A program made the position numbers and the translations under genes. This document shows, in pieces, positions 4,460-54,467 of a stretch of DNA of 64,000 bases. The stretch is from Alphaproteobacteria bacterium. Lineage in GTDB: Bacteria; Pseudomonadota; Alphaproteobacteria; Rs-D84. The stretch is from the NCBI GenBank assembly GCA_017503725.1, contig JAFVSL010000003.1:6236-70235 (forward strand). The letters run 5' to 3'. The notes under the pieces were generated by a model. It had not been told where the DNA came from and ran no database searches. It saw nothing but the letters and a program-made list of their open reading frames with translations. Position 1 is the stretch's first letter. Each line of letters opens with the position of its first letter.

Positions 4460-5935
4460 ATGTCAGAAAATACAACAAATACAGCGATTTCAACAAACGA
4501 ATTGACGGCACGTCTGCAAAAGGCTGAAAATATCCATGCCCGTGACGGCGTTGTATGGAAAGACAAATTTGATCGCACACACACGATTGAAGCGGCACGT
4601 GAATTAGCCGATGGTACGGCGGTGCGTCTGGCGGGTCGTGTGACTGCATTGCGTTGGCTGGGCAAATTGATGTTTGGTCGTATTTATGACATCAATGGTG
4701 AAATTCAGTTTTCTATGTCCCGCGAAGAATTGGGCGAAGAAAATTACAAATTTATGAAGGCTAATGTTGACCTGGGTGATTTTATTGGTATTACGGGCGA
4801 ATTGTATCACACAACCGCGGGCGAATTGACGGTCAAAGTGTCCGCGTATGAAATTCTGGCCAAGGCCCTGCGCCCATTGCCGGAAAAGTATCACGGCCTG
4901 ACCGATATGGAAACCAGATATCGCCAGCGTTATTTAGATATCATCTCGAATCCAGAGGCACGCAATGCCTTGCTGGGGCGTTTCAAGATGACACAGTACT
5001 GGCGTGATTATATGAACCGCAACGGTTTCTTGGAAATTGAAACACCAATTATGCAGAATATTGCATCTGGTGCGGCGGCGCGTCCATTTACAACACATCA
5101 CAATGCCCTGGATACAGATTTTCAGTTGCGTATTTCGCCTGAATTATTCTTGAAACAGGCCATTGGTGCCGGCTTTGACCGCGTGTATGAGGTTGCCAAA
5201 GACTTCCGCAACGAGGGTATGGATGCAATGCACCTGCAAGAATTCACAATGGTTGAATGGTACGCGGCATATTGGGACTTTAACGACAATATTAAATTTA
5301 CGTGGGAACTAATCCAGGAATTATTGATGAAATGTCGCGGTACACTGCAAATCGAATATCAGGGTACGGCATTGGATTTCAGCAAATATGAAATGATTGA
5401 CTATACGGCCAAGATGAACGAATTCTTTGGTTGCGATATTCTGGATTTTGATGATGTCGATGCCCTGCGCCAGAAATTGGTGGATAACGGTATGTTCCCG
5501 ATGGCGGAATTAGAAGATTTAAAATCAATCCCGACATTGGTTGACTATGTATACAAGCGCAAGATTCGTGGCGACATTGTAAATCCAACATTCTTGTATA
5601 ACTATCCTGCGTATATGGTTCCATTGGCCCGTCGCAGCGATGCCGACGAACGCAGAATCGATATGTATCAGTTATTGGTATGTGGTGCCGAAATTTGCAA
5701 GGGGTATTCTGAACTTGTAAACCCAATCCAGCAATTGGCCGCATTCGAAGAACAGGCCCGCAATATCGCCGACGGCGACGAAGAAGCCTTTAACCCTGAC
5801 AACGACTTTGTTCGTGCGATGGAACACGGTTTCCCACCGATTTCCGGTGTTGGAATGGGTGTTGACAGATTGGCCAGCATCATTTTCGATCAGCCAACCT
5901 TGCGCGATGTAATCTTGTTCCCGATAATGAAATAG
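4460..5935 (+). CDS. lysS: lysine--tRNA ligase, class II
   Basis: 491 aa. N-terminal OB-fold region, then class II motifs (KDFRNEGMDAMHLQEFTMVEWY, GVGMGVDRL) characteristic of LysS. Confidence 0.93.
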   Translation: MSENTTNTAISTNELTARLQKAENIHARDGVVWKDKFDRTHTIEAARELADGTAVRLAGRVTALRWLGKLMFGRIYDINGEIQFSMSREELGEENYKFMKANVDLGDFIGITGELYHTTAGELTVKVSAYEILAKALRPLPEKYHGLTDMETRYRQRYLDIISNPEARNALLGRFKMTQYWRDYMNRNGFLEIETPIMQNIASGAAARPFTTHHNALDTDFQLRISPELFLKQAIGAGFDRVYEVAKDFRNEGMDAMHLQEFTMVEWYAAYWDFNDNIKFTWELIQELLMKCRGTLQIEYQGTALDFSKYEMIDYTAKMNEFFGCDILDFDDVDALRQKLVDNGMFPMAELEDLKSIPTLVDYVYKRKIRGDIVNPTFLYNYPAYMVPLARRSDADERRIDMYQLLVCGAEICKGYSELVNPIQQLAAFEEQARNIADGDEEAFNPDNDFVRAMEHGFPPISGVGMGVDRLASIIFDQPTLRDVILFPIMK

Positions 5936-5946
5936 TGGTGGTGATT

Positions 5947-7347
5947 ATGAACGATGGTATGCCAGATGGCTATGCGGAAACATTAACCCTGGAACGGGAC
6001 AGAAAGAATTTATCTGCAATTGATAATGCTGTTGAATCCGGTCGCATTAACGAAGAGGCGGCCGAATACCTGCGCACACTGTACAGCGACAGTATGACCT
6101 GGTTCCGCGAAATATTTCATATCCTGGGCAAATCGTTTGGTGCGCCCAAGGCCCCCGTTATGAAATACGATTATGCGACGGATTCGGCGATTGATGAACC
6201 GATGAAGATTTCAGACATTCATCCATTGTCGCCATATGTTGTTCAGCATCGTCTGGACGCCGACCCAATGCGTAATCAGTTCTTTACCAGTGCCCCTGGT
6301 CATAAAATCGAATTGTCTGTGTCGTCAATTGTAACGGTTATCGTCGCGGCCCAGAAGAAAATAGAACGTGCCCTGGACAAGATTACGGGCAAATATTATC
6401 GTGACTATGTAAATGACGTTGCGCGTGCAGCGTCCCGCGTATTAAGTGCCGATGGCCGTGATGCATCTGCGCGTGCGATATCTGACAAAATCCATAAAAT
6501 TTTTGACGAGAAATATATCACGAATGCATCTGAAACGGTCCTGTCGATTATTGGCCGTGGACACGAAAAAATAGCGGTTGAAATGGTTCGCGCCCTGGAT
6601 AAAATTGAAAAGCCGCATCAACGATTACAAGATGTCTGGCGTGTAAAGTGTCTTTTTGATTTAATCCCCCAGGCACGGACATTTGTTGAGCGTCTTTATT
6701 CCGCAATGCCAGAGCGCATTTTGTCCAGCCGTGACAAGTTTTATGATATGACGAACCCGCGTAATTATCGTGATGCCAAGATTATATTAAACATCGGTCA
6801 CGGCAAGACGGTAATTCCAATGGAAATTATATGCCAGGTTCGTACGTTCTTTGAATTCGAGCGCAAAACACACGAAGTGTATGAAACAACACGTCGCGCC
6901 AAAAATGCCAAATCCGATAATATGGAAAGTAAATTAGCCACGTTCTTGGAAGATGGTGTAAAATCGTACAACCACGTGATTTGTCGCTGTTTGGAAGCCT
7001 TGTTTGAACGCGTCGGTTGGAATATTTTATATTCCCAGGACAATCGCATATCTATGTTCGAAGGATTCCCACACGAATGTAAATTGTATTATCCACAAAA
7101 GATATTGGATAACATCAATGAAAAACTGGACGACGCCATTGAAAACGAAGTTTTTCGTGTCGAAAATGCGCCGACAAAATTAAGCGCTAATCAACAGGCC
7201 AAGATTTTCCATTTTATGGCGCGTTTTGTCCTGGTATCTGCGATGCCATATATGCAACGTGACTGGGCATTTGCCCCAACGACCCAGGCAGAAAAGTTAT
7301 TTAACTTTGTAATGAACGAGGTCCAACGTTACTATAAGAAATCATAA
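5947..7347 (+). CDS. RelA/SpoT-like nucleotidyltransferase domain protein (divergent, function unknown)
   Basis: The central segment DVWRVKCL...RDKFYDMTNPRNYRDAKIIL...MEIICQVRTFFEFERKTHEVYE resembles RSH synthetase motifs (D-x-x-G-x-R-[IV], NGY-x-S-x-H, E-[IV]-Q-[IV]-RT...H..YK). The frame is open from GTG 5935, which overlaps the lysS stop. ATG 5947 has a ggtggtga SD. Confidence 0.5.
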   Translation: MNDGMPDGYAETLTLERDRKNLSAIDNAVESGRINEEAAEYLRTLYSDSMTWFREIFHILGKSFGAPKAPVMKYDYATDSAIDEPMKISDIHPLSPYVVQHRLDADPMRNQFFTSAPGHKIELSVSSIVTVIVAAQKKIERALDKITGKYYRDYVNDVARAASRVLSADGRDASARAISDKIHKIFDEKYITNASETVLSIIGRGHEKIAVEMVRALDKIEKPHQRLQDVWRVKCLFDLIPQARTFVERLYSAMPERILSSRDKFYDMTNPRNYRDAKIILNIGHGKTVIPMEIICQVRTFFEFERKTHEVYETTRRAKNAKSDNMESKLATFLEDGVKSYNHVICRCLEALFERVGWNILYSQDNRISMFEGFPHECKLYYPQKILDNINEKLDDAIENEVFRVENAPTKLSANQQAKIFHFMARFVLVSAMPYMQRDWAFAPTTQAEKLFNFVMNEVQRYYKKS

Positions 7348-16931: not shown

Positions 16932-17837
16932 ATGAAAAAAATAGTTTCCTTGGCGGTATTAACTGCATTGGTGTCCGCGTGTGCGGATTTAAGTACAACA
17001 TCTCAGCCTGCGGGTTATGGCGCGGATGGCTTTGGCGAAGAAACCTTGGTTGCGGCACCTGCGGCCGAACAATCATTGAATACGGATGCGTATTTGTTGG
17101 CGCCGGCACCAAAATATTACATTGGCACCGCGTACAAGGTCGAAGATGTTCAATACATCCCGGTCGAAGATATGTCTTATAACCAGACGGGTGTTGCGGG
17201 CATCATTCCAACTGAATTAAATGGCACCAAGACCAGCAATGGTGAAACATTTGATGCCGGTCAATTATTGGCGACCAGCAAAACATTACCATTGCCAACA
17301 ATTGCACGTGTGACAAATCTGGATAATGGTCAGTCTGTTGTTGTGCGTGTAAATAATCGTGGTCCATTTGTAAATACACGTATTATGGACTTGTCACCGG
17401 CGGCTGCACAAAAAATCGGTCTGAATGGCCAGGGCAAGGTCCAGGTCCAAGTTATGGTTAATGAATCCAACGCGGTCAAGGCCGCAACCCTGGGTGCAAA
17501 TACACCGGCCCAACCGGCGGTTGTTGCGGCCCCGGTTGTAACCGAGACGGTTGCCGTTGCCACGACCCCGGTTGAAACACCGGCACCCGTTGCCACCGGC
17601 GATTACAGTGTACAGGTTGCCGCATTCTATGCCGAAGATAGTGCAACAACATTGGCAAATCGTATGAAAACATACGGCGATGCGGTTGTTGTTAACGAGG
17701 GCGATATGTACAAGGTTCGCATTATCAACCTGGATGCAACCCAGGCACGTGGTGTAATTGATGCCCTGCGTAATAACGAGGGTATGGCCCCCGGCTTATT
17801 AAAATCCGGTCGTTGGGTCAACGCCGACAGCATTTAA
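16932..17837 (+). CDS. rlpA: septal ring lytic transglycosylase RlpA family lipoprotein with SPOR domain
   Basis: Lipobox VSAC. DPBB core TSNGETFD...TLPLPTIARVTNLDNGQSVVVRVNNRGPF. C-terminal SPOR domain (YSVQVAAFYAEDSATTLANRM). Confidence 0.88.
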   Translation: MKKIVSLAVLTALVSACADLSTTSQPAGYGADGFGEETLVAAPAAEQSLNTDAYLLAPAPKYYIGTAYKVEDVQYIPVEDMSYNQTGVAGIIPTELNGTKTSNGETFDAGQLLATSKTLPLPTIARVTNLDNGQSVVVRVNNRGPFVNTRIMDLSPAAAQKIGLNGQGKVQVQVMVNESNAVKAATLGANTPAQPAVVAAPVVTETVAVATTPVETPAPVATGDYSVQVAAFYAEDSATTLANRMKTYGDAVVVNEGDMYKVRIINLDATQARGVIDALRNNEGMAPGLLKSGRWVNADSI

Positions 17838-17869
17838 AAAAATCCCCGCCAAATGGCGGGATTTTTTTT
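17836..17869 (+). terminator. rho-independent terminator after rlpA
   Basis: aaaaaaatccccgccaaatggcgggatttttttt. Confidence 0.85.
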
Positions 17870-17959
17870 CAAAGTTCAAAGTGCATAGTGCAAAGTTCAA
17901 TTAATGAATACATAATACTTAGATAAATAAAAGTTTATTTAACAAAAACGTTTCAGATT

Positions 17960-18118
17960 TTTGTCATTCCGGGGCGTATCGGGCCCCGAAAAATTCAAAT
18001 GAATTTTTTGGGTGATGGTGCCCCCGGAATCCAGGTGTAGGCAAATAAAAAGGAAATATGACCTGGGTCCCGTGGTCAAGCCACGGGATGACAGAATTTT
18101 TTTTGCAAAAAATTCTGT
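17960..18118. repeat. small palindromic MITE/REP-like elements (gtcattccgggg...ccccggaat and cccgtggtcaagccacggg types)
   Basis: Hairpin-forming GC-rich palindromes. Spurious ORFs across them translate to 'VVKPRDD' and 'WIPGSSPGMT'-type peptides, as known for short palindromic repeats of intracellular proteobacteria. Copy 1 carries an extra nested palindrome (ccccgaaaaattcaaatgaattttttggg) that copy 2 lacks. Confidence 0.7.
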
Positions 18119-18155
18119 TGTACTTCCTGCGATAAACTTTTATTTATATAAGCAA

Positions 18156-18184
18156 TTGCGCAAATGGAAACAATCGGTTATAAT
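18156..18184 (+). promoter_or_regulatory. sigma70-type promoter TTGCGC-N17-TATAAT of cassette 1
   Basis: -35 at 18156-18161 and -10 at 18179-18184 with 17-nt spacing. The same geometry (TTGCGT-N17-TATAAT) sits at the equivalent position of copy 2. Confidence 0.7.
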
Positions 18185-18190
18185 AATCGT

Positions 18191-18422
18191 GTTATGGTGA
18201 TTTTGCCATAATGAGGTGTAGTGACCTCTGTACTGGTGTCGGAATACAAAACTATGCCCATAGCGGTGTCGGTGGCGTATTCTGATAAATAGCTCCTGAT
18301 ATTGACGTCAGGAGGGTTGCGAATATATTGAATAAGCACACAATTCCAGTAATTGTCACTAACCTCCTGGCCACTCGTGAGAACGCGTGGTTTTTTCTTG
18401 TTAAAAAAAGGAGAAAAAGACA
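18191..18422 (+). promoter_or_regulatory. conserved ~230-nt 5' leader (candidate cis-regulatory RNA) of cassette 1
   Basis: Elements in order:
- +1 palindrome TTATGGTGATTTTGCCATAA (18192-18211)
- 24-codon uORF (18211-18285)
- helix CTCCTGA/TCAGGAG (18293-18299 / 18308-18314)
- alternative partner AACCTCCTG (18361-18369)
- hairpin plus T-run (18371-18396)
- SD aggag and ATG 18423
All are mirrored in copy 2. Confidence 0.6.
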
Positions 18423-18902
18423 ATGAAAAAAATATTGTTTGCGTTATTGCTTTTTGGAACGACTACCCATAGTAATGCAGCGACAGATTCCCAACAACTA
18501 TGTCATCCGTATGCAAACACCAGCCTTGCCGCAGAGTGCACTGTAATAAAAACAAATGCAATTGGTGCAGACGTATCTTGTTCACATCCGCTACTTGACA
18601 AGCCAGTAATGATCCATATTGTATCCAGATGCACATCGGATAGATTGGACTGTGTCGCACCTGGCTGTTCTAGCACTTTAGGGTTAACCTCTTTTAGACA
18701 AAAATATACTGCAGAATATCCTTTGCGATATTGTTGGTGCCAACGAACCGAACCGACAATGTCAGGTTTTGTCTACGCAACTGATGATGGGGATGTAGAC
18801 CGCTGTTCAAAAAACTGCGCAGAAACCTGTGCGGACATTTTAACAACCAAGAACCTTACAACCGTTCGTCGTAATCTACTTCAAGGTGTAGTAGTTTTTT
18901 AA
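18423..18902 (+). CDS. secreted cysteine-rich protein, 'YC[WF]C' family (159 aa)
   Basis: Signal peptide MKKILFALLLFGTTTHSNA. 14 Cys in the mature part. Core motif RYCWCQRTEPTMSGFVYA...CSKNCAETCA is shared with the ORFs at 18921 and 35467. Confidence 0.75.
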   Translation: MKKILFALLLFGTTTHSNAATDSQQLCHPYANTSLAAECTVIKTNAIGADVSCSHPLLDKPVMIHIVSRCTSDRLDCVAPGCSSTLGLTSFRQKYTAEYPLRYCWCQRTEPTMSGFVYATDDGDVDRCSKNCAETCADILTTKNLTTVRRNLLQGVVVF

Positions 18903-18920: not shown

Positions 18921-19724
18921 ATGAATAAGAAATTTATAAACGCTTTTATATTTGTTTTATGCGCAAACACAGCGATAGCACGTTCTGTGACCCTGTGTGT
19001 CAATCCAGACATACTTAACACATCTGTGACAAATTGGACCATTGGCACGGGCATAATCCAAAATTCAGGGAGTGGATACATCAATTTTAAAGCAAGAGTT
19101 ACAATCAACGACGGTGCCAATTATTTTATGTATACTAACGTATTGATTGATTCAAGATGCGGCAAAGTTTTAGATACGAACGTGTACAATAAGGCTTTTA
19201 ATGAGGACGATTTCTTAAACGATGCACATACAGGCAACAGCTATTGTTTCTGTAAAATGGTACGCCCATTCGTAACCCCATATTTTGCAGCCACATATGG
19301 ACCGCAAACTTCGATCCCCTATGATAATTGCGTTAATAACTGCGCTTATTATTGTGCGCATACTGTTCCAAGAGACGGTTTTCCAAACTTCATACTGGGT
19401 CAGCTTTTCAATATGCCAAATTTTGGAACTGACTATATTTCTACAGATGCTGTAACGAGAGGCCAATGCCCAACGAATTATTTGCCTATCGAAAAGGACG
19501 GCGTTGGTTTTGAAACTGATTGTACAGACACCGGTGGCACAGTATACACTAACTCCGTATTTGACTATGCCACGGCAGTAACCAGTTGCTTTTCCTCCGA
19601 TTTAGTTCCTGGCGAACCTTGTGCGATGTTTTATTGGGGCGGATATGAAGGCTCTGACGCAAGTGGCTACTTTTCTATAAAATCTAAAATATGCAATGAA
19701 TTCCCAGCAGAAGGGCTGTTTTAA
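18921..19724 (+). CDS. secreted cysteine-rich protein, 'YC[WF]C' family with C-terminal G-x-Y-x-x-D-x-SG module (267 aa)
   Basis: Signal peptide MNKKFINAFIFVLCANTAIA. Core SYCFCKMVRPFVTPYFA...CVNNCAYYCA. The C-terminus CAMFYWGGYEGSDASGYFSIKSKIC resembles the C-termini of the 34976 ORF and the giant protein. Confidence 0.75.
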   Translation: MNKKFINAFIFVLCANTAIARSVTLCVNPDILNTSVTNWTIGTGIIQNSGSGYINFKARVTINDGANYFMYTNVLIDSRCGKVLDTNVYNKAFNEDDFLNDAHTGNSYCFCKMVRPFVTPYFAATYGPQTSIPYDNCVNNCAYYCAHTVPRDGFPNFILGQLFNMPNFGTDYISTDAVTRGQCPTNYLPIEKDGVGFETDCTDTGGTVYTNSVFDYATAVTSCFSSDLVPGEPCAMFYWGGYEGSDASGYFSIKSKICNEFPAEGLF

Positions 19725-19751
19725 AAAATCCCCCGTTTGGGGGATTTTTTA
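19723..19751. terminator. bidirectional terminator (cassette 1 / rnj)
   Basis: aaaaaatcccccgtttgggggatttttt; the hairpin core matches the one at 7828-7859. Confidence 0.85.
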
Positions 19752-21518
19752 TTTCTGAATGAAATGCACACTGTATTGTGGTTTCTTGTCCGCCCCCAGG
19801 GACGCACGCACAACCTTGTTAGATGCAATTTGGACCGCACGGACCAGATTATCACGGTCTTTGCGTTCGGCCTTGCTTAACGCGTCAATCGCCTTGGTTA
19901 TTTCAATCTGAATCTGGCGTTTCATAAATCCGGTTGTGTCGGTTTCAAAGATTCCGGCACTGGAAACCTCTGGTACGCCCTTTAAAAATCCGCGCTTGTC
20001 AACCGGCAATGTTACGAATACCGCACCGTTGGACGCAATTTTGCGACGGTTCTTATAAACCTGGTCATCGGCACTGCGTTCGGTTTCACCCTCCATCACG
20101 ACATAGGATGTCTCGATTGTTTCGGCAACATATGGTTCTTCGCCATCGCGCAGGGCGACCATTTCACCATTATGCACAACCATCATATGTTTTGCGCCAC
20201 CACGTTCCATCGCCATTTTACCATTCAGCATTTCGTTGATATAGTCGCCGTGCATTGGAATTGATACCTGGGGGTGAACCATATCATAAAAGCGTTCCAA
20301 TTCTGGACGGCCGGCGTGACCACTGGCGTGAAGGTTATCGGTATCAAAGATTGTGTGTGTTTTAATCCCCATACGCGCCAATTTATTGTACAGGAATGAA
20401 ACATCTTGTTCGCGCCCCGGGATAATAATAGAACTGAATATAACCGTGTCGGTTGGCATCAGTTTCATTTCTTTTACCTGGCCACGGCACAGACGCGTCA
20501 GCATTGCGAATTTTTCGCCCTGGGATCCGGTCAAGAATATAGCCTGTTTTTCCGCTGGCAAATCCTTGATTTCGCCGTGGGTGTAAACTTCGTCTTTGCC
20601 GATATATCCAAATTCGATTCCCATTTCACGAAATTCCGGCAGGCCCACATAAGGCACCGGATTTGGATTTGTGCGCTCTTTGATTGCGGCAATGCGTCCG
20701 GCGGCACGTGCGGCCTCTGCAAACATTTTGATACGGGCCAGACTGCGTGAATATCCCGTCACGATAACGCGCCCCGGGGCATTTTTCATAATTTCAGTTA
20801 ACGTGTCACGAACCTGGGTTTCGGTAACTTGTTTTGTCTGGCGTGATGAATTTGTTGAATCGCACATACACGCCAATAATTTCGGGTCGGAACCAATTTC
20901 GCGCAAACGTGCGAAATCAGTTGGCGCTTCGATTGGAATATCGTCGTTGAATGTCCAGTCACCCGTATGCAAGATTTTACCCGCATCGGTTGAAATAATC
21001 AGCATCTGTGCCTCTGGCACGGAATGGGTAACGTGGAATGTTTCGACCGTGAACGGTGCCAAATCCAGTGTCGCACCATTGTGATCAAATTCAACAATAT
21101 CCGTTTTTTCGTTGAAATCTAATTCAATACCACGGAATGTGCGGCGCAGAATTTCCGCCGGGAATCGTGTGCAGTAAATCGGCTTTCTGAATTTTGGCCA
21201 AATGTACTTTAATGCGCCAATATGGTCTTCGTGACCGTGTGTGATGACAAAGCCAACAACATCTTTGCGGCGTTTTTCAAGCCACGTTGTGTCACAGTAT
21301 TGAACGTCGCCGGCACCGATTTCTTCTTCCAGGAAACCCATACCACAATCAACGATTAAATATTTACCCTGGTACTTATAGACATACATATTCTGGCCGA
21401 TGTGTTCCAATCCGCCCAATGCCATAAAGTACATTTTATCATCATTTTTGTCACTTTCGTGTTTTGTTTTACCGGTAATTTTTGCCGGCAAATTTTTCTT
21501 TTCTTTTACTTTTACCAT
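19749..21518 (-). CDS. rnj: ribonuclease J (metallo-beta-lactamase/beta-CASP RNase)
   Basis: 589 aa with the HGHEDHIG motif, a beta-CASP region and a C-terminal domain. aaagga SD before ATG 21518. Lys-rich N-terminal extension. Confidence 0.88.
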   Translation of the reverse strand: MVKVKEKKNLPAKITGKTKHESDKNDDKMYFMALGGLEHIGQNMYVYKYQGKYLIVDCGMGFLEEEIGAGDVQYCDTTWLEKRRKDVVGFVITHGHEDHIGALKYIWPKFRKPIYCTRFPAEILRRTFRGIELDFNEKTDIVEFDHNGATLDLAPFTVETFHVTHSVPEAQMLIISTDAGKILHTGDWTFNDDIPIEAPTDFARLREIGSDPKLLACMCDSTNSSRQTKQVTETQVRDTLTEIMKNAPGRVIVTGYSRSLARIKMFAEAARAAGRIAAIKERTNPNPVPYVGLPEFREMGIEFGYIGKDEVYTHGEIKDLPAEKQAIFLTGSQGEKFAMLTRLCRGQVKEMKLMPTDTVIFSSIIIPGREQDVSFLYNKLARMGIKTHTIFDTDNLHASGHAGRPELERFYDMVHPQVSIPMHGDYINEMLNGKMAMERGGAKHMMVVHNGEMVALRDGEEPYVAETIETSYVVMEGETERSADDQVYKNRRKIASNGAVFVTLPVDKRGFLKGVPEVSSAGIFETDTTGFMKRQIQIEITKAIDALSKAERKDRDNLVRAVQIASNKVVRASLGADKKPQYSVHFIQK

Positions 21519-21852: not shown

Positions 21853-22323
21853 TTATTCTGCGACGGGCGCTTCTGGTGCCGGCGTCGGTTTACGCATTTT
21901 ATGTTTAAATGCTTTAAATTCAGACTTATCCACACAGCCATCGTTATTCACATCGATTTGTGGTAACATTTCAACCATCTTTGGGCATTTTACAACCAGG
22001 CATCCATTATCATCGAACTGTGGACGTGGCATCTTGGCGTGTTTTTTGCACGGCATAACCTTTGCCGCCGCGAATCCCAGTGCAAAAAATACCAATACAA
22101 CAATGAATTTTTTCCAGAAACCACAGTGATGCTTTTTGCATTCACAATTTCCACCGCACGGACAACCCTTGTCACATCCGCACGCGTGTGTTTCTACGAC
22201 CGGCGCGACAACTTTTAATTCAGGGGCCTTTTTTGCGACGGTTTTCTTAACAGGGGTCTTTTTTGCGACTGTCTTCTTAGTAGTTGTTTTCTTTACAACT
22301 TTTTTTGTTGTTTTTTCTGCCAT
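21853..22323 (-). CDS. membrane protein with Lys-rich repeat N-terminus, Cys/His cluster and EF-hand
   Basis: The N-terminus is a KK[TV]xxKK repeat (KKVVKKTTTKKTVAKKTPVKKTVAKKAP). It is followed by HACGCDKGCPCGGNCECKKHHCG, the TM helix FIVVLVFFALGFAAA and a canonical EF-hand loop DVNNDGCVDKSE. Confidence 0.6.
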   Translation of the reverse strand: MAEKTTKKVVKKTTTKKTVAKKTPVKKTVAKKAPELKVVAPVVETHACGCDKGCPCGGNCECKKHHCGFWKKFIVVLVFFALGFAAAKVMPCKKHAKMPRPQFDDNGCLVVKCPKMVEMLPQIDVNNDGCVDKSEFKAFKHKMRKPTPAPEAPVAE

Positions 22324-34975: not shown

Positions 34976-35455
34976 TTATTCCATCGCACACGCATCTGTA
35001 AATTCATATATGCCGGTGTCATCGGTATACGACTCGCCCGCGGGCGCGTACATTATGCAATCCCCGGATGGGCTTGACACCAAACACGATTCCGCCGTGC
35101 CAATGGCGATTGTGCCACTGGGGCAACTGGTTGCAAGGGTGATATATGGCCTGTCAATCGCGATATATCCCGCTGGACAATCCGTACTGGGCACATTACC
35201 CAAAATACACACACCGGCGTCACCGCATTTGAATCCACTGGCACAGGGTGGCACACCGGTGTAAACCGTCAGTGTGCTACTGGTACAGGTCTGTCCCAGT
35301 GTTGCCGCCGCCACACAGGTTGCCAGTGATAGACTACTCGTTCGCAAACATACCCCAGAATCACATTGCGTACTGTATAAACAATTTTGACCATTTGCGA
35401 GCCCTGCAATCGCGGATAACGGCGCCAGAGACATTAAAAATATCAATCGCTTCAT
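34976..35455 (-). CDS. secreted cysteine-rich protein with C-terminal G-E-x-Y-x-D-D-T-G...C module (159 aa)
   Basis: ATG 35455 with an aaggg SD 8 nt upstream (the track ORF begins at GTG 35464). Signal peptide MKRLIFLMSLAPLSAIAG. 15 Cys in the mature part. C-terminus CIMYAPAGESYTDDTGIYEFTDACAME. Starts 11 nt after the stop of the upstream gene. Confidence 0.75.
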   Translation of the reverse strand: MKRLIFLMSLAPLSAIAGLANGQNCLYSTQCDSGVCLRTSSLSLATCVAAATLGQTCTSSTLTVYTGVPPCASGFKCGDAGVCILGNVPSTDCPAGYIAIDRPYITLATSCPSGTIAIGTAESCLVSSPSGDCIMYAPAGESYTDDTGIYEFTDACAME

Positions 35456-35466
35456 TCGCGCCACCC

Positions 35467-35916
35467 TTAGTTTGATATTGAGCTAAACAGCGCGGACCGG
35501 AACTCGGGATAGTACTGAGCGTGCGTCGCACAATTGCCCGAACAGTAGAACGCGCAATTACTGGCGGGCGTGTATATGTTGGTGTATACCCAAGACGAAA
35601 CGGCCGGTTCAACCATCTTGCACCAGCAATAAAAATTGACTTCACTTGAGGCGTCGCTTAGCGTTGGTAATGCGCCGTCTGAATATATTGCATAATCCGT
35701 ATCGCCCTTTACATTAGAACACGCCGAAACTCCCTTAATCGGGACGTTGGTACCATCGGTGGTACAAGTTACCTCCCATTCGGCCGTACCATTCCAGTTG
35801 ACTGGCGTTGATGTACACGTGGTGGTTGATGAATCCAATGCCACGCATTGTTGTACCGCCATTGCGGGCACGGCAAGCAACGTGCCGACTGCGGTTAAGG
35901 TTAAAAGTTTTTTCAT
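35467..35916 (-). CDS. secreted cysteine-rich protein, 'YC[WF]C' family (149 aa)
   Basis: ATG 35916 with a gggag SD (the track ORF begins 13 codons upstream). Signal peptide MKKLLTLTAVGTLLAVPAMA. Core FYCWCKMVEPAVSSWVYT...CAFYCSGNCA. Confidence 0.75.
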   Translation of the reverse strand: MKKLLTLTAVGTLLAVPAMAVQQCVALDSSTTTCTSTPVNWNGTAEWEVTCTTDGTNVPIKGVSACSNVKGDTDYAIYSDGALPTLSDASSEVNFYCWCKMVEPAVSSWVYTNIYTPASNCAFYCSGNCATHAQYYPEFRSALFSSISN

Positions 35917-36161
35917 ATGTATCACTCCCTTTCTTTGTTCTTCGCGAAAAAACAAAAACCACCGAAAACTTTCGAGTGGTCAGGAGGTTAGAAACAATCT
36001 TGTGAATTGTGTGCTTATTCAATATATTCGCAACCCTCCTGACACTAATGTGCTCAGGAGTTTTATTTCATCAAAACACGACACGCCGGCAATTTACCAT
36101 TGCGTCATCTTTTAATGCACAAGTCGGGTTTCTACACCCCATTATGGCAAATCGCCATAAC
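35917..36161 (-). promoter_or_regulatory. conserved ~245-nt 5' leader (candidate cis-regulatory RNA) of cassette 2
   Basis: Mirror of 18191-18422:
- palindrome TTATGGCGATTTGCCATAA (36142-36160)
- 23-codon uORF (36071-36142)
- CTCCTGA/TCAGGAG helix with a different loop
- the same 40-nt invariant core
- AACCTCCTG
- hairpin plus T-run (about 35949-35980). Confidence 0.6.
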
Positions 36162-36167
36162 ACACCA

Positions 36168-36196
36168 ATTATAACTAAATCTTTCCCCTTACGCAA
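36168..36196 (-). promoter_or_regulatory. sigma70-type promoter TTGCGT-N17-TATAAT of cassette 2
   Basis: -35 at 36191-36196 and -10 at 36168-36173 on the minus strand. Same spacing and position as in copy 1. Confidence 0.7.
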
Positions 36197-36454
36197 TTGC
36201 AATGATAAATAAAAGTTTATCGCAGGAAGTACGAACAGAATTTTTTGCAAAAAAATTCTGTCATCCCGTGGCTTGACCACGGGACCCAGGTCATATTTCT
36301 TTTTTTATTTGCTTTCACCTGGATTCCGGGGTCAAGCCCCGGAATGACAAAAACGTTAAACGTTTTTGTAAACTGATTACCCCACTAAACTTTTATTTAA
36401 CGAAGTAATATTATGTATGCCAACACTAATCACTAACCACTTACGGCTCACCAC

Positions 36455-36483: not shown

Positions 36484-39400
36484 TTACCAAGACATATATC
36501 CGGGGTTACATTTACGTTCGCACTTTTTCGTGTCTGGATTCCATATCATTGTTCCGGTTTCGTCTTCGTATTCTTCACCAACTGGACAAATTGGAACGCA
36601 CTCATTATTTTCAAGGTTATACAATTCTCCCTGGTACATACAGGCCGCAATCGTACATCCTTCAATATAACTGCTTGCCGCGTCTTGCCCCAGTACGCTT
36701 TTGGCATTGCGACAGCGTCCACATTGTTTGTTTGGTTCGTCTGATTCATATGAATCATTTGTATATCCGGGTTCGCACGACGTTGCGATACATTCGCCCC
36801 ACGTGCCGCGATTTTCATCCCATTCACGTGTTCCCGTACCGTGTTCAACCGAGCACACCTCTACATCCGGGACACAGGCATTTGATGAAACGTGATATCC
36901 ATCAACGCATTCTGTAATCTTGCAGATTCCAAATGCGCCCAACTTGTTGTCCCACGTCTGACTGGCCGCATATGCGTTTGGTGCCGTGCAAGTTTTTACG
37001 TCATCTGCGCACTGGTCGCCCTCTGGATGGAATCCTGTATGACATTTCGCCACCAGACAGTTTCCATTTGGTTTGTACGCGGTTGCATTGGCGCGTTCAC
37101 ATCTCTGACAACGACCATCAATCAATTCATAGTCTGGATTACAAGATGTTTCAACGCACGTCTCGTATCCCTTGATTGTCTGAATTTCGCACGGATTTCC
37201 CGTCTCAGACATTCCCTTGAATGTACAAACATTGTCGTACTGTACGGTGTCACTGTCGCGTATTGCCATACCGCCCAAGATTTCGTAATCTTCACACGTT
37301 GTATAGCATTGTTCAATCTTGGTTGAACCCGCACCGGACAATTTATGTGTGCCACCCGTTAATTCATCACAGGTCATTGGTACGCCATCTGGGGTACCGT
37401 CTAAATCAATATCCGACCCAGACATTGCATCACAAACACTGTTTTCTGGGCACAATTCACATTGTGATTTATCCCCCGCCAGATAGTATCTTGTATCACA
37501 TACCTGAATTTCACAAGTGTCTGTCATATCCGCACCCTGATAGTCGCGGCCAACCATTGTTGTGACGTTGATCGGCGCATCACAGTCGCCAAAGCATTGT
37601 CCCACATTGGTCGAACCCGCATCTGATTCTGGGTAACGCCCATCAAACAGCGCGCTACACACCTGTGGTTCAGCATTCGCGACACCGTCAAATCCTGTAC
37701 GTGTGGATTCATCACAAATACTGCCGGCTGGACAAATATCACACTGATTATTATTGATGTAATATTTTTCATCACACGTATCCAACATACACGCCGTGCA
37801 ATCGGACGAATAATCTTCTGCATTCGTGTTGTATCCACAGGTCTTAATTCCGCCACCGTGTGCAACAGAGCAGGGCATTTCAGTCATAAAGCACGCGGAT
37901 GCATCACTGCTGGTGTCTGATTCTGTTTGTCCCGCGCGACCGTCAAATGTTGCACAACCCTGGCGTGCTGTTGGGCGTCCCTCGTTACCCGCATCTGCAA
38001 CCGGCCCAAAGAAGCCATAGCCAACCTTGGTACAATCCGTATCGCCAATCGCATTCCAATAGTATCCTGGGTCACACTTCTGGAACATACGCGCACGACA
38101 TTCCGTGTATCCTTTGTTCTCGGGCGAATAGATACAGTATTGGAATCCAGAACCGTGATCTGATGTGAATGGATTTTCCGCCTTGAAGCACGATGTAGAT
38201 TCCGCAGCATTATCGACGTTTGTGTCACCACCGTCTGGACATGGCGTTCTGTTCAAACTGCCTGGTTCACTGTACGCATCATATCCAACCGCCGTACAAT
38301 CAATTGCCGCCGCATTTTCACGATAGTATCCACCCTGGCACGTTGTTATATACTTGTCACGACAATTGGTCGCATACTTCGCACTGCCGTCTGCATTGTC
38401 GGACGTGTAATTACATACCTGGGTACCCGCGCCGTATGTCGCGTTGTATTCAACGGTCTTGTAACATTCACCGGCATCATCTGCGGTCGTCAGTGTGCCC
38501 GTCAACCCATTTTCTGGACACTCATAACGTTTCAGGTCATCTGTACCACTGTAATGGTTTATACCAACCTCGACACAGTCTATACCAGATACATAATAGT
38601 ATCCCGCAACACATTTCTTGACCGAATGGTCGCGACAGGAGGCATCATATGCCTTTGTGTCTTCATCATAGTTACACGTTTGTGTCCCACTGGCCTTGCC
38701 GGTTGTGGACGTGTATGCCAACCCTTGCTTATAGCATACACCACTGTTGGTCGCGCTTGCGCCACCGGCCGATATGCCACCATCTGGGCAAATTTCGTGA
38801 CCGCCAACGACACCCGTATCTGTTGGGTATGTTCCGCCCGGACACCAGTGATCGGCTGCACAAACAACACAATCTCCGCCCCGGCCTGGGTAATAATATC
38901 CAGCCTCACAGACCGTGTCGCCTTCGGACCAAACAACATTTGCGGTTGTATCGTTTGTTGTCACACGCAGGGCCGCATTTGTATTTTGCAAAGTACCCGC
39001 CGCATCAATAATCATAACGTCGCCGACGCTGTAACCCGCAAAGTTGTATCCAGATTTACCGGGCAGGGCACTCGTATCTATTGTTGTTAATGCCTTGTTT
39101 GCCGCTACATCTTCGAACCAGCCCACCGTGTATTTCAAATATACTGGTTTTTGTGTTGCGTTTTCTGTGGCATCACTTGCCACCAATTCAATTTTGAATA
39201 CATCTGGTTCCCAAATGGCGTACAGTTTTGTATCGCTACCGTTGGCCGAGATGTTTTCAGATGTTGCGACATTCGCGGCATAGCACGCACCCGAACCGTT
39301 CGCATTGGTGCACCATTTGTTCGCAGACACATATCCCGCACGTGCCAGTCCATCCGTCGCTGGTAACTTACAGGCGCCACTGTCAAATGTGCATTCGACA

Positions 39401-42400
39401 TATGCTGTAACATCGCCTGTGCCCTGGTTTTTATCCAGCGTAACCGTATATTTATTCGCGACACATTGCGGATTTGTGCCGTTTTTCGCAGTATAACCCG
39501 CATTGCACGTAATTGTATAAGAACAGGCTGCGTATTCAGCACTGGCCGTGTTGTATGGCGCGTTGGCTTCGTCTGGTGTTACAGTCTTGCTGTTTGTGAT
39601 GTCTGACGTTGTCAAAGAACAGGCACTGTAACAATCCGCCTCTGTTGCACGTGGCGCATTAGAACCGATTCCGTCATTTGCCGCACCGGTTTCGCCTGGA
39701 CAGGCGTGCGCGGCCATACTTTCTGTGTCCTCGGTCCCGTTTTCTACAACCGGTGCCGGACTGTAATATCCATCTGTTACCGGCGTACATGCGTTGCCAA
39801 CACCGCTATAGTAATAGCCCGCATCACACGTCAGCGCAATAGAGTCACAGTTTGTTGTGTATATTGCACTATTACCGCTACCACTTGTATACCAACAATC
39901 CCACTTTGCGGTACCAAAGTTGAATGTCATATCACCCCCATCGGTTGTAACCTTGCGACAGTCTGATATGCTGTCCGCACCAGCGGTGGTTGTTGCACCA
40001 TTCGCCGGACAAGTTTCCATACAACCGGTCGAGCCTTCGTTAATTTCGCCACTGCCCGGGCAATATTTTCCCAATTCACAGCGTGTACGCACACCGTTGT
40101 TGTAATAATATCCGGCCTCGCACGCAACCATATTCTGGTCCCAAATCGCATACAGGGTAATTTCACCACCATCCGACAGCAGGTTTTTAATACTGCCGTT
40201 TGCGACAATGGTTTTTCCTTTGCCGTCTTTCTGGGTATTCCAGACACTGAATGTCTTGTTCGGCATTTCAATTGTATCAGCGGCTGCACATTCCATATCA
40301 TACACGCATGTAACATCCGCAACATTCAGGCTTCCTGCATCTGTCGGATCAAAATGCACCGTAAATGTTGTTGGTGTCCAGTTTGCAACAACGGTTATGT
40401 GACCTGTTGTGCCCGCAACAATTTCATTGTTTTCAACCTTGTCACCGGTCCAACCATCAAAGATATAGCCCGTTTTTACAGGATCCTTTAATGCAATTGG
40501 CGTATCTGATATTGTATAAGCATCCGGATTTTCGGCATTGTTGGTACCGCCGTCCAAATCATATGTAATCACATACGAATCAGAAGTCCAGTTCGCAGTC
40601 AGAACCATATCGCCGATTGAACCATTTATAATCTGTGTAACCGTATTGCCATTTGCGTCGGTCCACTTGCTGAAAGTAAACCCTGTTTTTTCTGGTTTCT
40701 TTAAAACGATAGTGTTTGTTTCAACAGTGTACTCATCTGGGTTAGATTCACCGGTCTTATAAGTCCCGCCATTAAGATTGTATGTAATCTTATAGGTAAC
40801 AGGTGTCCACTTTGCCCAGAATTCTTTGTTGCCGATTGTGCCTGCTGAAATCTCGGTAACACTTGTGTTGAAACCGCTGTCGCTGAACCAGCCACCAAAA
40901 TCATAACCACGTTTTGTTGGATTGGATAACACAAATGCATCTTCAATTGTATATGTTTCTGGGTTTGAATTGCCCGCATAATATCCGCCATTCAAGTTGT
41001 ATTTGATGGTATACGAATTTGGCGTCCACTGTGCAACAAGCGTTATGTCTGCCGTATACGTGTTATTTGCAGGCAACAGACCATCTGTGCCGATAACAAG
41101 TGTACCCTTGCTATCATAATAGCCCATAAATGTATAACCATTGCGTGTAGGCAATACAATCGATTCCAAGGACGCACCACCGGCGGCATTGTCATACCAG
41201 CCAACCGTATATGTTTGATAAACGGTGCCCTGACCACCAACGCCGTTATTATCATTCAGCGTAACCGCATATGTGCCCGGTGTACATGATGCAACATCCG
41301 ATGCCGTCATTGGTGAACCATACAATGTTTTTCTATAACCATATTGAACCGCAGACGTCGTATTTGCAACATATCCAGCATCACAAACAAATGTAAACGA
41401 ACAGAAAGAGGTTGGTGTACAAACCGTCTGTGGATACCAACGATATCCCTTGTTAGGCAATGTACCTTCTGTACACGTGGCGTGTTCTGGACAGTGGTTT
41501 ATATTGCCAGACACTTCTCCTTGCTCATTTATAACATAATCGTTCGCATAATCACACGTTGGTGCACAGGCATCATAACAAGCATTTGGACCATTCTGTA
41601 TCGAAGCCATAGAAGAATAGTTATAAAAGTCAACGGGTTCCAAACTCTCGCACGTTGCGCTGCAGGTTGGATATTCTTCAGACATGTAATAGCCCGATTT
41701 ACACACGGTTTGTGAAGAATATAAATCAACCGGACACGCTGTGCTAGATACAACACACTCTTCTGAATCGTAATACTGTACGCCGGACAACTTTGTGTCA
41801 GAAAGAAATTCGCATTTTAAGAAATTTCCTGGACAACTGCTTGGTACTACACAGCTTATCTCACAAGTCTTGTAACACTGTTGTTCGGCGTCGCCGGCAA
41901 CACAAATATTGTAAGTGCCCTGATATTCGGCGCCCAGCGCAGAACACGACGTTGTACAACTTGAGCATACGCCATTGCTTGGGTATGTGCCACTTGCGCA
42001 ACCACAGGCACCATCTTCAGTGCTGTTGCACGCATTCCATTGTGCGGTAAAGGTCAGACTGGCCGTACAGGTGCCCTTTGTGACTGATGTGACCGTCGCA
42101 CCCGTGTCATCCTTCCATCCTGCAAATGTATAACCCGCGCGTGCAATGTTATCAGCCGTCGGCAGGGCAAACGTATCCGTATCCGCATTACACGACAACA
42201 TATAGTCACCGCTCCATTTTGTGTCGTCTGGGGTTACGTATGTGATGGTCTTTGCCCCTTCGGCAACATATTCTGCGGTAAATGTTTTTCCACTTGTATA
42301 AGTCCATAGAAAATCTGTTCCCGCGGTGTGAATTGTTGTCCCGTCATTCCAGTGGCTGAAATCATAACCAACTGGTTCGGTGCAAGTATTTGTCGCCGGT

Positions 42401-46608: not shown

Positions 46609-46741
46609 ATCTTCCTCTCTTTTGTCTTTTATGGTAGTAAAAATGCGCCATATCGCGCAAGGGGAAATATTAAAAATCAATTTAAAAAATATATTTGACG
46701 CATTTTTGGTGCTTGACTTTTTATAAAAGTGTATTTTTTTG

Positions 46742-54071: not shown

Positions 54072-54424
54072 AATAAATTAAGAATGCCGGGTTTCTGGTG
54101 CCATGTACCCGGCGAACACCGCAATTGCTTAAACGAATACGGTCAACAATCGCCAACCATATTCAACGCCATATTTAGGCAGCCATTGCAAGGCGAACAT
54201 TGTCGTTCGCAGCGATTCTATCGCCATTCAGTTTTTATTTGGCTTTTAACGACACCACGTCGGATTCACCCAGTTTGTCTTTCATCATCTGTCGAATCTA
54301 TGTCAGCCCCATAACCAAATACGACCATAAATCGTATCAAGTAATGGTGGAGCTGTGGGGTACCGCCCCCCAGTCCATAATGACTATTTCACAACGGATT
54401 CAGAATCATCATCGTTTGCACGAC
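54072..54424 (-). ncRNA. ssrA: tmRNA gene, circularly permuted two-piece type (acceptor piece, spacer, coding piece)
   Basis: Reading the minus strand:
- Acceptor piece ends ...GGGG-GGCGGTA-CCCC-ACAGCTCC-ACCA at 54345.
- The coding piece starts 35 nt later (54310) with GGGGCTGACATAGATTCGAC, which pairs with CAGCTCC and includes the G3:U70 Ala identity pair.
- Tag frame gct gcg aac gac aat gtt cgc ctt gca atg gct gcc taa gives (A)ANDNVRLAMAA*, with its stop at 54175-54177.
- Terminator hairpin gccgggt...acccggc at about 54086-54113. Confidence 0.9.
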
Positions 54425-54430
54425 CCCAAG

Positions 54431-54459
54431 ATTATAGTCTTTTACACTGGAAATTGCAA
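54431..54459 (-). promoter_or_regulatory. sigma70 promoter TTGCAA-N17-TATAAT for ssrA
   Basis: -35 at 54454-54459 and -10 at 54431-54436 on the minus strand. Confidence 0.75.
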
Positions 54460-54467
54460 GTTTTTAG

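Follow-up and report, generated by a model that had tools for sequence, protein, structure and literature searches.

A leader RNA of the sRNA-Xcc1 kind with two predicted, mutually exclusive folds precedes small secreted-protein genes in Rs-D84 gut Alphaproteobacteria

We analysed a 64,000-nucleotide stretch of contig JAFVSL010000003.1 (hereafter the window) from an alphaproteobacterium of the order Rs-D84. It carries two copies of a structured leader RNA of about 205 nt, each lying between a TTGCNN-N17-TATAAT promoter and a small open reading frame (ORF) for a cysteine-rich protein with a signal peptide. A first-pass annotation of this DNA had noticed three short elements in copy 1, a Shine-Dalgarno (SD)-like sequence able to pair with either of two flanking anti-SD sequences, followed by a terminator-like hairpin, and had proposed a riboswitch expression platform or an attenuator. 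This interpretation is partly supported: the three-element switch is a genuine conserved feature, yet only one layer of a larger leader for which the comparison of homologues predicts two mutually exclusive folds, both conserved. The leader is a sub-threshold variant of the sRNA-Xcc1 kind (Rfam RF02221), greatly expanded in Rs-D84 gut bacteria. It is an unusually well-supported structured RNA: the analysis establishes that it is folded, that two folds are available to it, that a terminator-like hairpin is present and that its third element is complementary to the ribosome-binding site of the gene that follows.

The three elements, which we call b, c and d, are present where they had been placed: CTCCTGA at 18293-18299 (b; CUCCUGA in the RNA), TCAGGAGGG at 18308-18316 (c; UCAGGAGG) and AACCTCCTG at 18361-18369 (d; CCUCCUG). 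By reading positions 17700-18800 we also confirmed the hairpin with its run of six T and the AGGAG (18409-18413) that precedes the ATG at 18423. The two helices formed by c are exclusive, as had been claimed, but longer than the 7 bp first given: b:c has 8 bp in copy 1 (CUCCUGAU/GUCAGGAG) and c:d has 9 bp (GUCAGGAGG/CCUCCUGGC, with one G-U). The proposed expression platform stands as a conserved set of three elements, but not as a free-standing unit of 104 nt; the region is the 3' part of the ~205-nt RNA, which is built around a four-way junction. Both window copies fold far better than shuffled sequence and into the same architecture despite their differing variable parts; they have in common an invariant block of 45 nt, the remainder having diverged (the invariant core of copy 2 lies at 36020-36042 on the minus strand). 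In the minimum free energy (MFE) fold, the partner of d is neither c nor the ribosome-binding site but an upstream GRGG element, a, and this pairing closes the four-way junction.

Relatives were collected by scanning one genome per species for exact matches to GGAGGGTTGCGAATATATTG, which gave at least 114 stretches; the ratios given below refer to copies among the matches listed. The full 27-nt core was found in 114 of the 117 matches listed, the other three being two chance hits and one degenerate copy, and an nhmmer profile of the 3' domain retrieved 21 further divergent copies in the same loci, which fold alike. In all, at least 135 relatives are present in more than 50 gut metagenome-assembled genomes (MAGs) of Candidatus Enterousia, a member of the order Rs-D84 with genomes of about 0.75-1.0 Mb (PMC12306168). 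The stretches listed come nearly all from gut or rumen MAGs, assigned to Candidatus Enterousia or to uncultured Alphaproteobacteria/Rickettsiales, and the copies are located on long chromosomal contigs; one MAG, SIG48, has at least 12 loci in a genome of ~0.9 Mb. Nearly every copy lies directly 5' of an ORF of the same orientation, with a gap of 25-45 nt that holds no promoter. The TTGCNN-N17-TATAAT promoter stands 6-9 nt 5' of the first hairpin in homologues too, and there is no room for a second promoter between this sigma-70-type promoter and the ORF; the copy 1 promoter is not listed by a generic promoter scan.

The closed fold is predicted as a four-way junction composed of P1 (a:d), P2, P4 (b:c) and P6. 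Its long-range closing helix, P1, joins GAGGU-G-UAGUGAC with GUCACUA-ACCUC in copy 1, and changes compensatorily between the two window copies (GUGAC/GUCAC to GAAAC/GUUUC), as does P2 (UACUGG/CCAGUA to CUUGUG/CACAAG). Helix statistics were obtained by anchor-based parsing and our own pair counts, with no covariance model; P1a, P2 and P5 were placed by complementarity, the non-cognate controls being the real test for P2 and P5, and for P1 the tests consisted of column shuffles and slid registers only. Over 89 unique copies, 95% of the pairs in P1 (12 pairs) were standard, eight pairs had changed on both sides and the distal part took 33 different 7-mers. P2 was represented by 71 different 6-mers among the 89 copies, and at least 6 bp formed in every cognate pair versus 31% of the non-cognate ones. 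P4 was 96% paired, its three outer positions switching jointly between two subtypes. The stem of P6 looks invariant in the 114 copies because the search demanded an exact match; in the divergent copies it covaries (GUUGU/ACAAC, GCUGU/ACAGC, GAUGU/ACAUC, GUGUG/CACAC, ACGGU/ACCGU), and the two GAAUA-like repeats of its loop are kept. The closed fold is the MFE structure of 44 of the 60 subtype-1 copies. Within the same 5' region, CCUC at 18225-18228 is able to pair locally with GAGG of element a, in a helix that we call Px.

In the open fold, c would pair with d in a helix of 9-13 bp enclosing P6 and another hairpin, P5. The latter takes up the 3' strand of P2 (CCAGUA at 18346-18351 in copy 1, within the loop and 3' arm of P5) together with the two leading bases of P1's 3' strand, and the closed and open folds therefore exclude each other. 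In subtype 1, b is CUCCUGA, c is GUCAGGAGG and d is CCUCCUGAC; in subtype 2 they are CUCCAAC, GGUUGGAGG and CCUCCAACC. All three elements change at three positions, so that b:c and c:d both stay complementary, and the comparison with related leaders that had been suggested as a check turned out in favour of the three elements. At least nine contiguous c:d pairs are found in all 111 scorable copies, against a cross-subtype complementarity of only 5 bp. In divergent copies b:c often relies on G-U pairs, while c:d is kept perfectly Watson-Crick. At one locus (L102:5060-5145, GGAGU/ACUCC) a G-C pair at the inner end of c:d has become U-A; the compensating change is found in c, and a shows none. 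P5 has at least 5 bp in 93 of the 98 parsed copies, with variants such as ACAAUU/GAUUGU, ACUGU/ACAGU and GCUAUU/AAUAGU; its pair types change (A-U to U-A, A-U to G-C), and it has on average 5.6 bp when cognate versus 3.9 bp across subtypes. The genes also differ: 3' of subtype 1 are cysteine-rich proteins that carry a signal peptide and have few matches in Pfam (Ephrin_rec_like, TNFR-like), and 3' of subtype 2 mostly XRE-type helix-turn-helix (HTH) proteins of 70-110 aa, at least 20 of 43 matching HTH_31, HTH_19 or HTH_3.

We then compared the leader with sRNA-Xcc1. The window copies gave no RF02221 match, at E <= 10 or at the gathering score, and matched no Rfam family. Three relatives scored 35.1 (L005), 36.5 (L027) and 43.0 bits (L031) against the full-length model; no copy reaches the gathering score of 53 bits, and four canonical loci on viral contigs, taken as a control, score 65-84 bits. 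The RF02221 consensus consists of an outer 9-bp helix (GgCcGGggG/CccCCgGcC) around two hairpins, and cmscan aligns c, P6, P5 and d of the relatives to these helices over model positions 1-87; the Rfam structure is therefore the open fold. The A/U-rich strands of hairpin 1 (AAUACAAuA ... GAAuaa in the model) are present as GAAUAU...GAAUAA. The inner hairpin of hairpin 1 is absent from the window copies and most relatives and present in a variant of the Enterousia clade (L049:6122-6222). The GGAGG look of c, which had suggested an SD mimic, is real, but c owes it to the family's G-rich outer helix, from which it derives (consensus GgCcGGggGG).

The canonical members also proved to extend beyond the Rfam model. 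In five loci (the four above the Rfam cut-off and one look-alike), upstream strands have as pairing partners the hairpin-2 loop and the linker taken to be single-stranded. The canonical upstream flanks contain an element of the form GGG-N-7mer-CCC, the 7-mer being complementary to the linker before d (CUCAAAA/UUUUGAG, CUAGCAA/UUGCUAG, UUGGAAA/UUUCCAA), and a second upstream strand is complementary to the hairpin-2 loop (CGAACAG, UCGAAAC, CAAGAAG, CACAAAG, CUAGCGA). These 5' strands of P1 and P2 differ compensatorily between loci, and three of the loci adopt the closed fold as their MFE structure once the flank is added. Since the canonical loci carry the upstream strands of P1 and P2, the Rfam family appears to be only the 3' half of a larger, switch-like leader, and on these pairings the two-fold architecture appears common to the whole sRNA-Xcc1 family. 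A BLAST search with a consensus-derived 3' half of sRNA-Xcc1 against plasmids gave no match.

In the literature, sRNA-Xcc1 is treated as a trans-acting small RNA of 88 nt; it is carried by integron cassettes, transposons, plasmids and prophages. In Xanthomonas the 88-nt RNA has mapped ends, starting at c, and Northern blots showed an RNA of ~88-100 nt (PMC2996969); the element precedes symE in integron cassettes (10.1101/2025.06.18.660453) and, in APSE phages, the gene of an ORF6N protein (PMC7313666), and seven copies are expressed in Xylella (PMC12189769). The 5' half and the closed fold are not described in these four papers. The window leader resembles this RNA in the 9-bp G-rich outer helix (c:d) around two hairpins, the AAUA...AAUA motif of hairpin 1, the pairing of the hairpin-2 loop and linker with upstream P2 and P1 strands, the CaCC tail, and its occurrence in many copies directly 5' of small genes, often for nucleic-acid-binding proteins. 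It differs in that hairpin 1 is reduced to a loop of 15 nt, c/d is GGAGG/CCUCC and a terminator-like hairpin follows d; moreover, it is chromosomal, in gut Alphaproteobacteria with reduced genomes, at 12 or more copies per genome and mostly before secreted cysteine-rich proteins.

In agreement with the first-pass annotation, 104 of the 110 copies listed (95%) have a hairpin and a U-run after d; the hairpin takes 88 different sequences, with means of 8.8 pairs and -10.2 kcal/mol and with 5-7 U in the next 8 nt. The leader thus has the G+C-rich hairpin and U-run upstream of an ORF that mark an attenuator (18370-18396 and 35954-35980 in the window). As for the linkage of this hairpin to the switch, the terminator stem begins 5-7 nt into d, and c:d takes only its lowest 2-4 nt, of which 1-3 form strong pairs. 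An extension of c:d into the terminator specific to each copy was considered and found no support, cognate and non-cognate pairs extending equally. Of the two proposed anti-SD sequences, d was borne out by modelling: in read-through RNAs, d is predicted to pair with the ribosome-binding site with a mean probability of 0.44 in subtype 1 and 0.27 in subtype 2, rising to 0.71 and 0.54, respectively, when its upstream partner (P1a) is blocked. Computationally, then, the leader has an element complementary to the ribosome-binding site together with two competing partners, a and c, as a sequestering switch would. The sequence around the real site varies in part with the subtype, CAGGAG being found in 27 of 62 subtype-1 copies versus 1 of 43 of subtype 2, and U-GGAGG in 17 of 43 subtype-2 copies. 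We also observed that the U-run can often pair with an A-run immediately 5' of the ribosome-binding site (18392-18418; 35925-35958 on the minus strand; many other loci), with interrupting G/C bases matched (UUUUGUUUU/AAAACAAAA, UUUGUUU/AAACAAA); in read-through RNA this pairing would place d beside the ribosome-binding site.

From these features we infer a mechanism, including its direction, its trigger and regulation itself, and regard as evenly balanced the joint proposition that the leader is transcribed from its own strong promoter, ends in a terminator-like hairpin at a distance of ~25 nt from the ribosome-binding site of a gene for a small secreted protein, and acts as a two-state switch controlling, in cis, terminator read-through and access to that site. 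The closed fold would be the default state of low expression, in which c is held by b and d by a, and nothing hinders the terminator; in the transcripts that read through, d would clamp the real ribosome-binding site. The 5' half would then be blocked or removed, either by a factor binding the GAAUA...GAAUA loop of P6 or by a cut just 5' of c, which would match the mapped 5' end of the 88-nt Xanthomonas RNA. Once free, c would sequester d in the sRNA-Xcc1 fold, freeing the ribosome-binding site, loosening the base of the terminator and raising expression. Several observations weigh against this reading. Only two b/c/d variants exist, and the three-way covariation may therefore reflect very few evolutionary events. 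The open fold is disfavoured in the full-length RNA, being on average ~7 kcal/mol less stable when c:d is forced, and the alternative helices could be co-transcriptional folding intermediates and not a regulated switch. With just 1-3 nt shared between c:d and the strong part of the terminator stem, c:d could act only weakly as an antiterminator. Finally, the canonical members have no complementarity between d and the ribosome-binding site, so that translational control may be a lineage-specific addition, and some of their loci have no U-run after the 3' hairpin.

The leader might instead be the precursor of a stand-alone small RNA, terminated or cut 5' of c and acting in trans through the P6 loop, in which case the RNA closed by c:d would target other RNAs or titrate a protein and the ORF would be expressed only by incidental read-through. 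An own promoter with a strong terminator-like hairpin, many near-identical loops per genome, the discrete ~88-100-nt Xanthomonas RNA starting at c (PMC2996969) and the seven expressed Xylella copies (PMC12189769) would all suit such a molecule, but it does not account for the placement of nearly every copy, 25-45 nt before a same-orientation ORF with no promoter between, nor for a 5' half (P1a, P2a) that co-varies with the 3' half and would be needless to an RNA made of the latter only. No recurrent downstream target complementary to the loop was found either, and we consider this explanation somewhat unlikely. Stabilisers at the 5' end with a ribosome-binding-site-like sequence, such as STAB-SD of cryIIIA, are known, and they count in favour of another view, that of a constitutive structured 5' untranslated region protecting a highly expressed mRNA from 5'-end-dependent decay, Px, P5 and c:d being only folding intermediates. 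The P0 hairpin at the very 5' end, an RNase J encoded in the window (19749-21518) and the clearly superior stability of the closed fold fit with it. A hairpin with a U-run in mid-mRNA would, however, be counter-productive, c:d is kept perfectly Watson-Crick while b:c tolerates G-U, and it is the open fold that accumulates as RNA in Xanthomonas (PMC2996969). We consider such a constitutive leader unlikely.

A classical metabolite riboswitch, in which the four-way junction and the P6 loop form the aptamer while b, c, d and the terminator form the expression platform, would explain the multi-stem junction, the conserved unpaired nucleotides, the alternative helices and the terminator. As the first-pass annotation had noted, no known aptamer is visible (no Rfam riboswitch matched at the gathering score or at E <= 10), and it would have to be a new class. 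The genes point elsewhere: secreted cysteine-rich proteins and XRE regulators, with no enzyme or transporter among them, do not look like a metabolic regulon, and the canonical relatives precede phage Bro-N/KilA-N-like or SymE genes (10.1101/2025.06.18.660453; PMC7313666). In addition, the conserved nucleotides lie in a large hairpin or internal loop of two repeats, more like a site for a protein or an RNA, and the family lives on mobile elements. A riboswitch of this type, and with it the ligand signal suggested at first, is very unlikely. Lastly, the conserved sequence could act as DNA, serving the XRE-type proteins as an operator or providing a site at which recombination shuffles secreted-protein cassettes. 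Such a role would agree with an invariant multi-copy core beside variable secreted-protein and XRE genes, and with the P6 stem arms, which form an inverted repeat in DNA, yet P1, P2, P4, P6 and the terminator keep their pairing while their sequences change, G-U pairs valid on one strand only included; the P6 stem varies and its non-palindromic loop is conserved, and the orientation is always sense to the downstream gene. We find it scarcely credible.

Other known systems share parts of this design. The trp leader, the T-box and SAM-I-type platforms likewise have three segments, of which the middle one pairs with either neighbour, and a terminator hairpin with a U-run right after the third segment, in a 5' leader. 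In contrast with them, the leader has no leader peptide, tRNA-binding features or known aptamer, its presumed antiterminator overlaps the terminator stem by just 1-3 strong nt, and its third segment has an extra partner, a. The c4 RNA of phage P1 is released by processing. The c4 RNA of P1/P7 immI (RF01695; c4-a1b1 motif, PMC2864571) and IsrK are, like the present RNA, small RNAs in the leader of mobile-element regulators (of the antirepressor type), and in the c4 system, as here, complementary sites are duplicated up- and downstream, the downstream one covering the ribosome-binding site; the topology of the elements differs, and neither RF01695 (C4) nor RF01394 (isrK) matched the window leader or L005 at E <= 10. 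ROSE and fourU thermometers and STAB-SD stabilisers also show a pyrimidine-rich element complementary to the real ribosome-binding site, or a ribosome-binding-site-like leader sequence without a conserved start codon after it. The ROSE and fourU models had no match in the window leader, which is much larger and belongs to hosts living at constant gut temperature. A motif search of the supplements of Fremin and Bhatt 2021 (200 of 408 files) gave no match.

The cis-acting two-state switch can be extended to the whole sRNA-Xcc1 superfamily. All its members would then be, in place of trans-acting small RNAs of 88 nt, the 3' half of a two-state leader of ~200 nt that senses a signal through the AAUA...AAUA loop of hairpin 1 and controls mobile-element regulators, and that was multiplied in the reduced genomes of Rs-D84 (at least 12 copies in ~0.9 Mb) to serve as a switch across a whole regulon of secreted, cysteine-rich proteins resembling those of eukaryotes. 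We offer this extension tentatively and regard it as rather doubtful. The sensor could be a protein, possibly one of the small DNA-binding proteins encoded downstream, or another RNA. Annotations of sRNA-Xcc1 exist for many Proteobacteria, for integron cassettes and for prophages. Our results suggest that the annotated RNA is only half of the element; the upstream pairings give it a second, more stable predicted fold and turn an orphan small RNA into a testable cis-acting switch. Its large expansion took place in uncultured, genome-reduced gut Alphaproteobacteria, before secreted cysteine-rich proteins and small XRE regulators, and these genes probably serve dealings with hosts or neighbouring microbes.

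Table 1. Positions of the two leader copies and their parts in the window.
Feature	Position	Strand	Description or basis
Copy 1 promoter, sigma-70-type	18156-18184	+	-35 TTGCGC 18156-18161, 17-nt spacer, -10 TATAAT 18179-18184; read from sequence
Copy 1, whole structured leader RNA	18191-18396	+	5' hairpin to end of U-run; MFE -80.5 kcal/mol, z = -5.35
P0, 5'-terminal hairpin, GUUAUGGU/GCCAUAAU	18191-18212	+	Folds of both copies; directly precedes the GRGG element in homologues
P1, 5' strand	18213-18225	+	Element a GAGGU, bulged G, 7-nt distal UAGUGAC
P2, 5' strand UACUGG	18231-18236	+	Partner 18346-18351
P3 insert hairpin, variable and optional	18237-18287	+	0-98 nt in homologues
Element b CUCCUGAU, 5' strand of P4	18293-18300	+	First anti-SD of the first-pass annotation; CTCCTGA 18293-18299
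Element c GUCAGGAGG, ribosome-binding-site mimic	18307-18315	+	Partner b (P4) or d (open fold)
P6 hairpin, stem UGC/GCA	18318-18338	+	15-nt loop GAAUAUAUUGAAUAA (18321-18335); counterpart of hairpin 1 of sRNA-Xcc1
P5 hairpin (open fold), ACAAUU/AAUUGU	18340-18356	+	Counterpart of hairpin 2 of sRNA-Xcc1
P1, 3' strand GUCACUA + ACCUC	18355-18366	+	Fold and pairing in homologues
Element d CCUCCUGGC	18363-18371	+	Second anti-SD; partner a (closed), c (open) or real ribosome-binding site
Terminator-like hairpin and U-run	18370-18396	+	Hairpin 18370-18391, U-run 18391-18396; sequence and fold
Ribosome-binding site and start codon	18409-18425	+	AGGAG 18409-18413, ATG 18423-18425; ORF 18423-18902, 159-aa secreted cysteine-rich protein
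Copy 2, whole leader RNA	35954-36162	-	MFE -81.6 kcal/mol, z = -5.04
Copy 2 parts		-	b 36054-36060; c 36035-36043; P6 loop 36015-36029; d 35979-35987
Copy 2 terminator hairpin and U-run		-	Hairpin 35959-35980; U-run 35954-35958
Copy 2 promoter	36168-36196	-	-35 TTGCGT 36191-36196, 17-nt spacer, -10 TATAAT 36168-36173; read from sequence
Copy 2 ribosome-binding site and ORF	35467-35929	-	GGGAG 35925-35929; ORF 35467-35916, 149-aa secreted cysteine-rich paralogue

Other features were sought in the leader. Translation of an upstream ORF, which had been put forward as a signal, was not borne out by a conserved frame: a frame starting with TTG varies in length and has no fixed phase with the main ORF, and divergent copies have lost the mini-ORFs of the core. 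A possible core-internal promoter (TTGACG-N16-TATATT) was discarded, its -35 element lying in the variable P4 loop and not being conserved, and so was dimerisation through the loop palindrome AAUAUAUU, which is lost in divergent copies where the two GAAUA repeats are kept. The P6 loop has a complement at 14 of 15 positions, UUAUGCAAUAUAUUC, at 35681-35695 on the minus strand, within the copy-2 ORF and on its strand. The expected number of such matches in the window is about 0.005; as none was found within 1.5 kb at any other locus, we took it as a coincidence. The P3 insert (18237-18287; for example also in L024 and L086) often contains a G+C-rich hairpin with a U-run after it and an A-run before it, and at the same place two canonical sRNA-Xcc1 loci (L166, L157) carry the hairpin CCGCGCCCGACAGUCUUGCGG followed by U7; such a hairpin might terminate or pause transcription in mid-leader. 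In a subgroup of subtype 2 with XRE genes (L008, L009, L006, L022, L075, L090), the loops of P0 and of the terminator hairpin complement each other in sequence and vary in a compensatory way (GUGAUAA/UUAUCAC, UGAUGA/UCAUCA, GUGACA/UGUCAU, UGACG/CGUCA), which makes a contact between the two loops possible in this subgroup; this kissing is not seen in the subtype of the window. At several loci two or three leader copies lie within 1 kb, some convergent or in tandem (L060:4841-4924 and ~4645; L102:5060-5145, 5905-5987 and ~5700; L034:1332-1412 and 1744-1828), resembling the five tandem sRNA-Xcc1 copies reported from a Xylella genomic island.

In the window, a pair of palindromes like repetitive extragenic palindromic (REP) elements (GTCATTCCGGGGC...CCCCGGAATCCAGGTG and GGGTCCCGTGGTCAAGCCACGGGATGACA) lies 5' of both leaders, at 17945-18111 on the plus strand and ~36240-36345 on the minus strand; in Rfam, the first pair weakly matches Wolbachia WsnRNA46 (20.4 bits for a cut-off of 65.3), and the block 18047-18203/36149-36305 is kept at 83% identity between the copies. 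The genes 3' of the two leaders belong to a family of small secreted cysteine-rich proteins with the motif YCWCxxxEP...C...C...C (18423-18902, 18921-19724, 34976-35464, 35467-35916), to which a repeat (21763-21813/34982-35032, 88%) ties a further locus. The 159-aa protein matched no Pfam family, and a search for homologues of the family in 5.8 billion proteins returned only the query itself and one relative with 92% identity; the paralogue at 34976-35464 matches the N-terminal domain of colipase. Immediately 5' of copy 2 and on the same strand lies an ORF of 3398 aa (36484-46680, minus strand), very large for a genome of ~0.9 Mb. A small protein (21853-22323, minus strand) combines, oddly, weak matches to histone H1-like HC2 in its N-terminal part and to an EF-hand in its C-terminal part. 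A two-piece (permuted) alphaproteobacterial tmRNA at 54083-54463 on the minus strand, with the tag AANDNVRLAMAA, confirms the alphaproteobacterial origin of the DNA.

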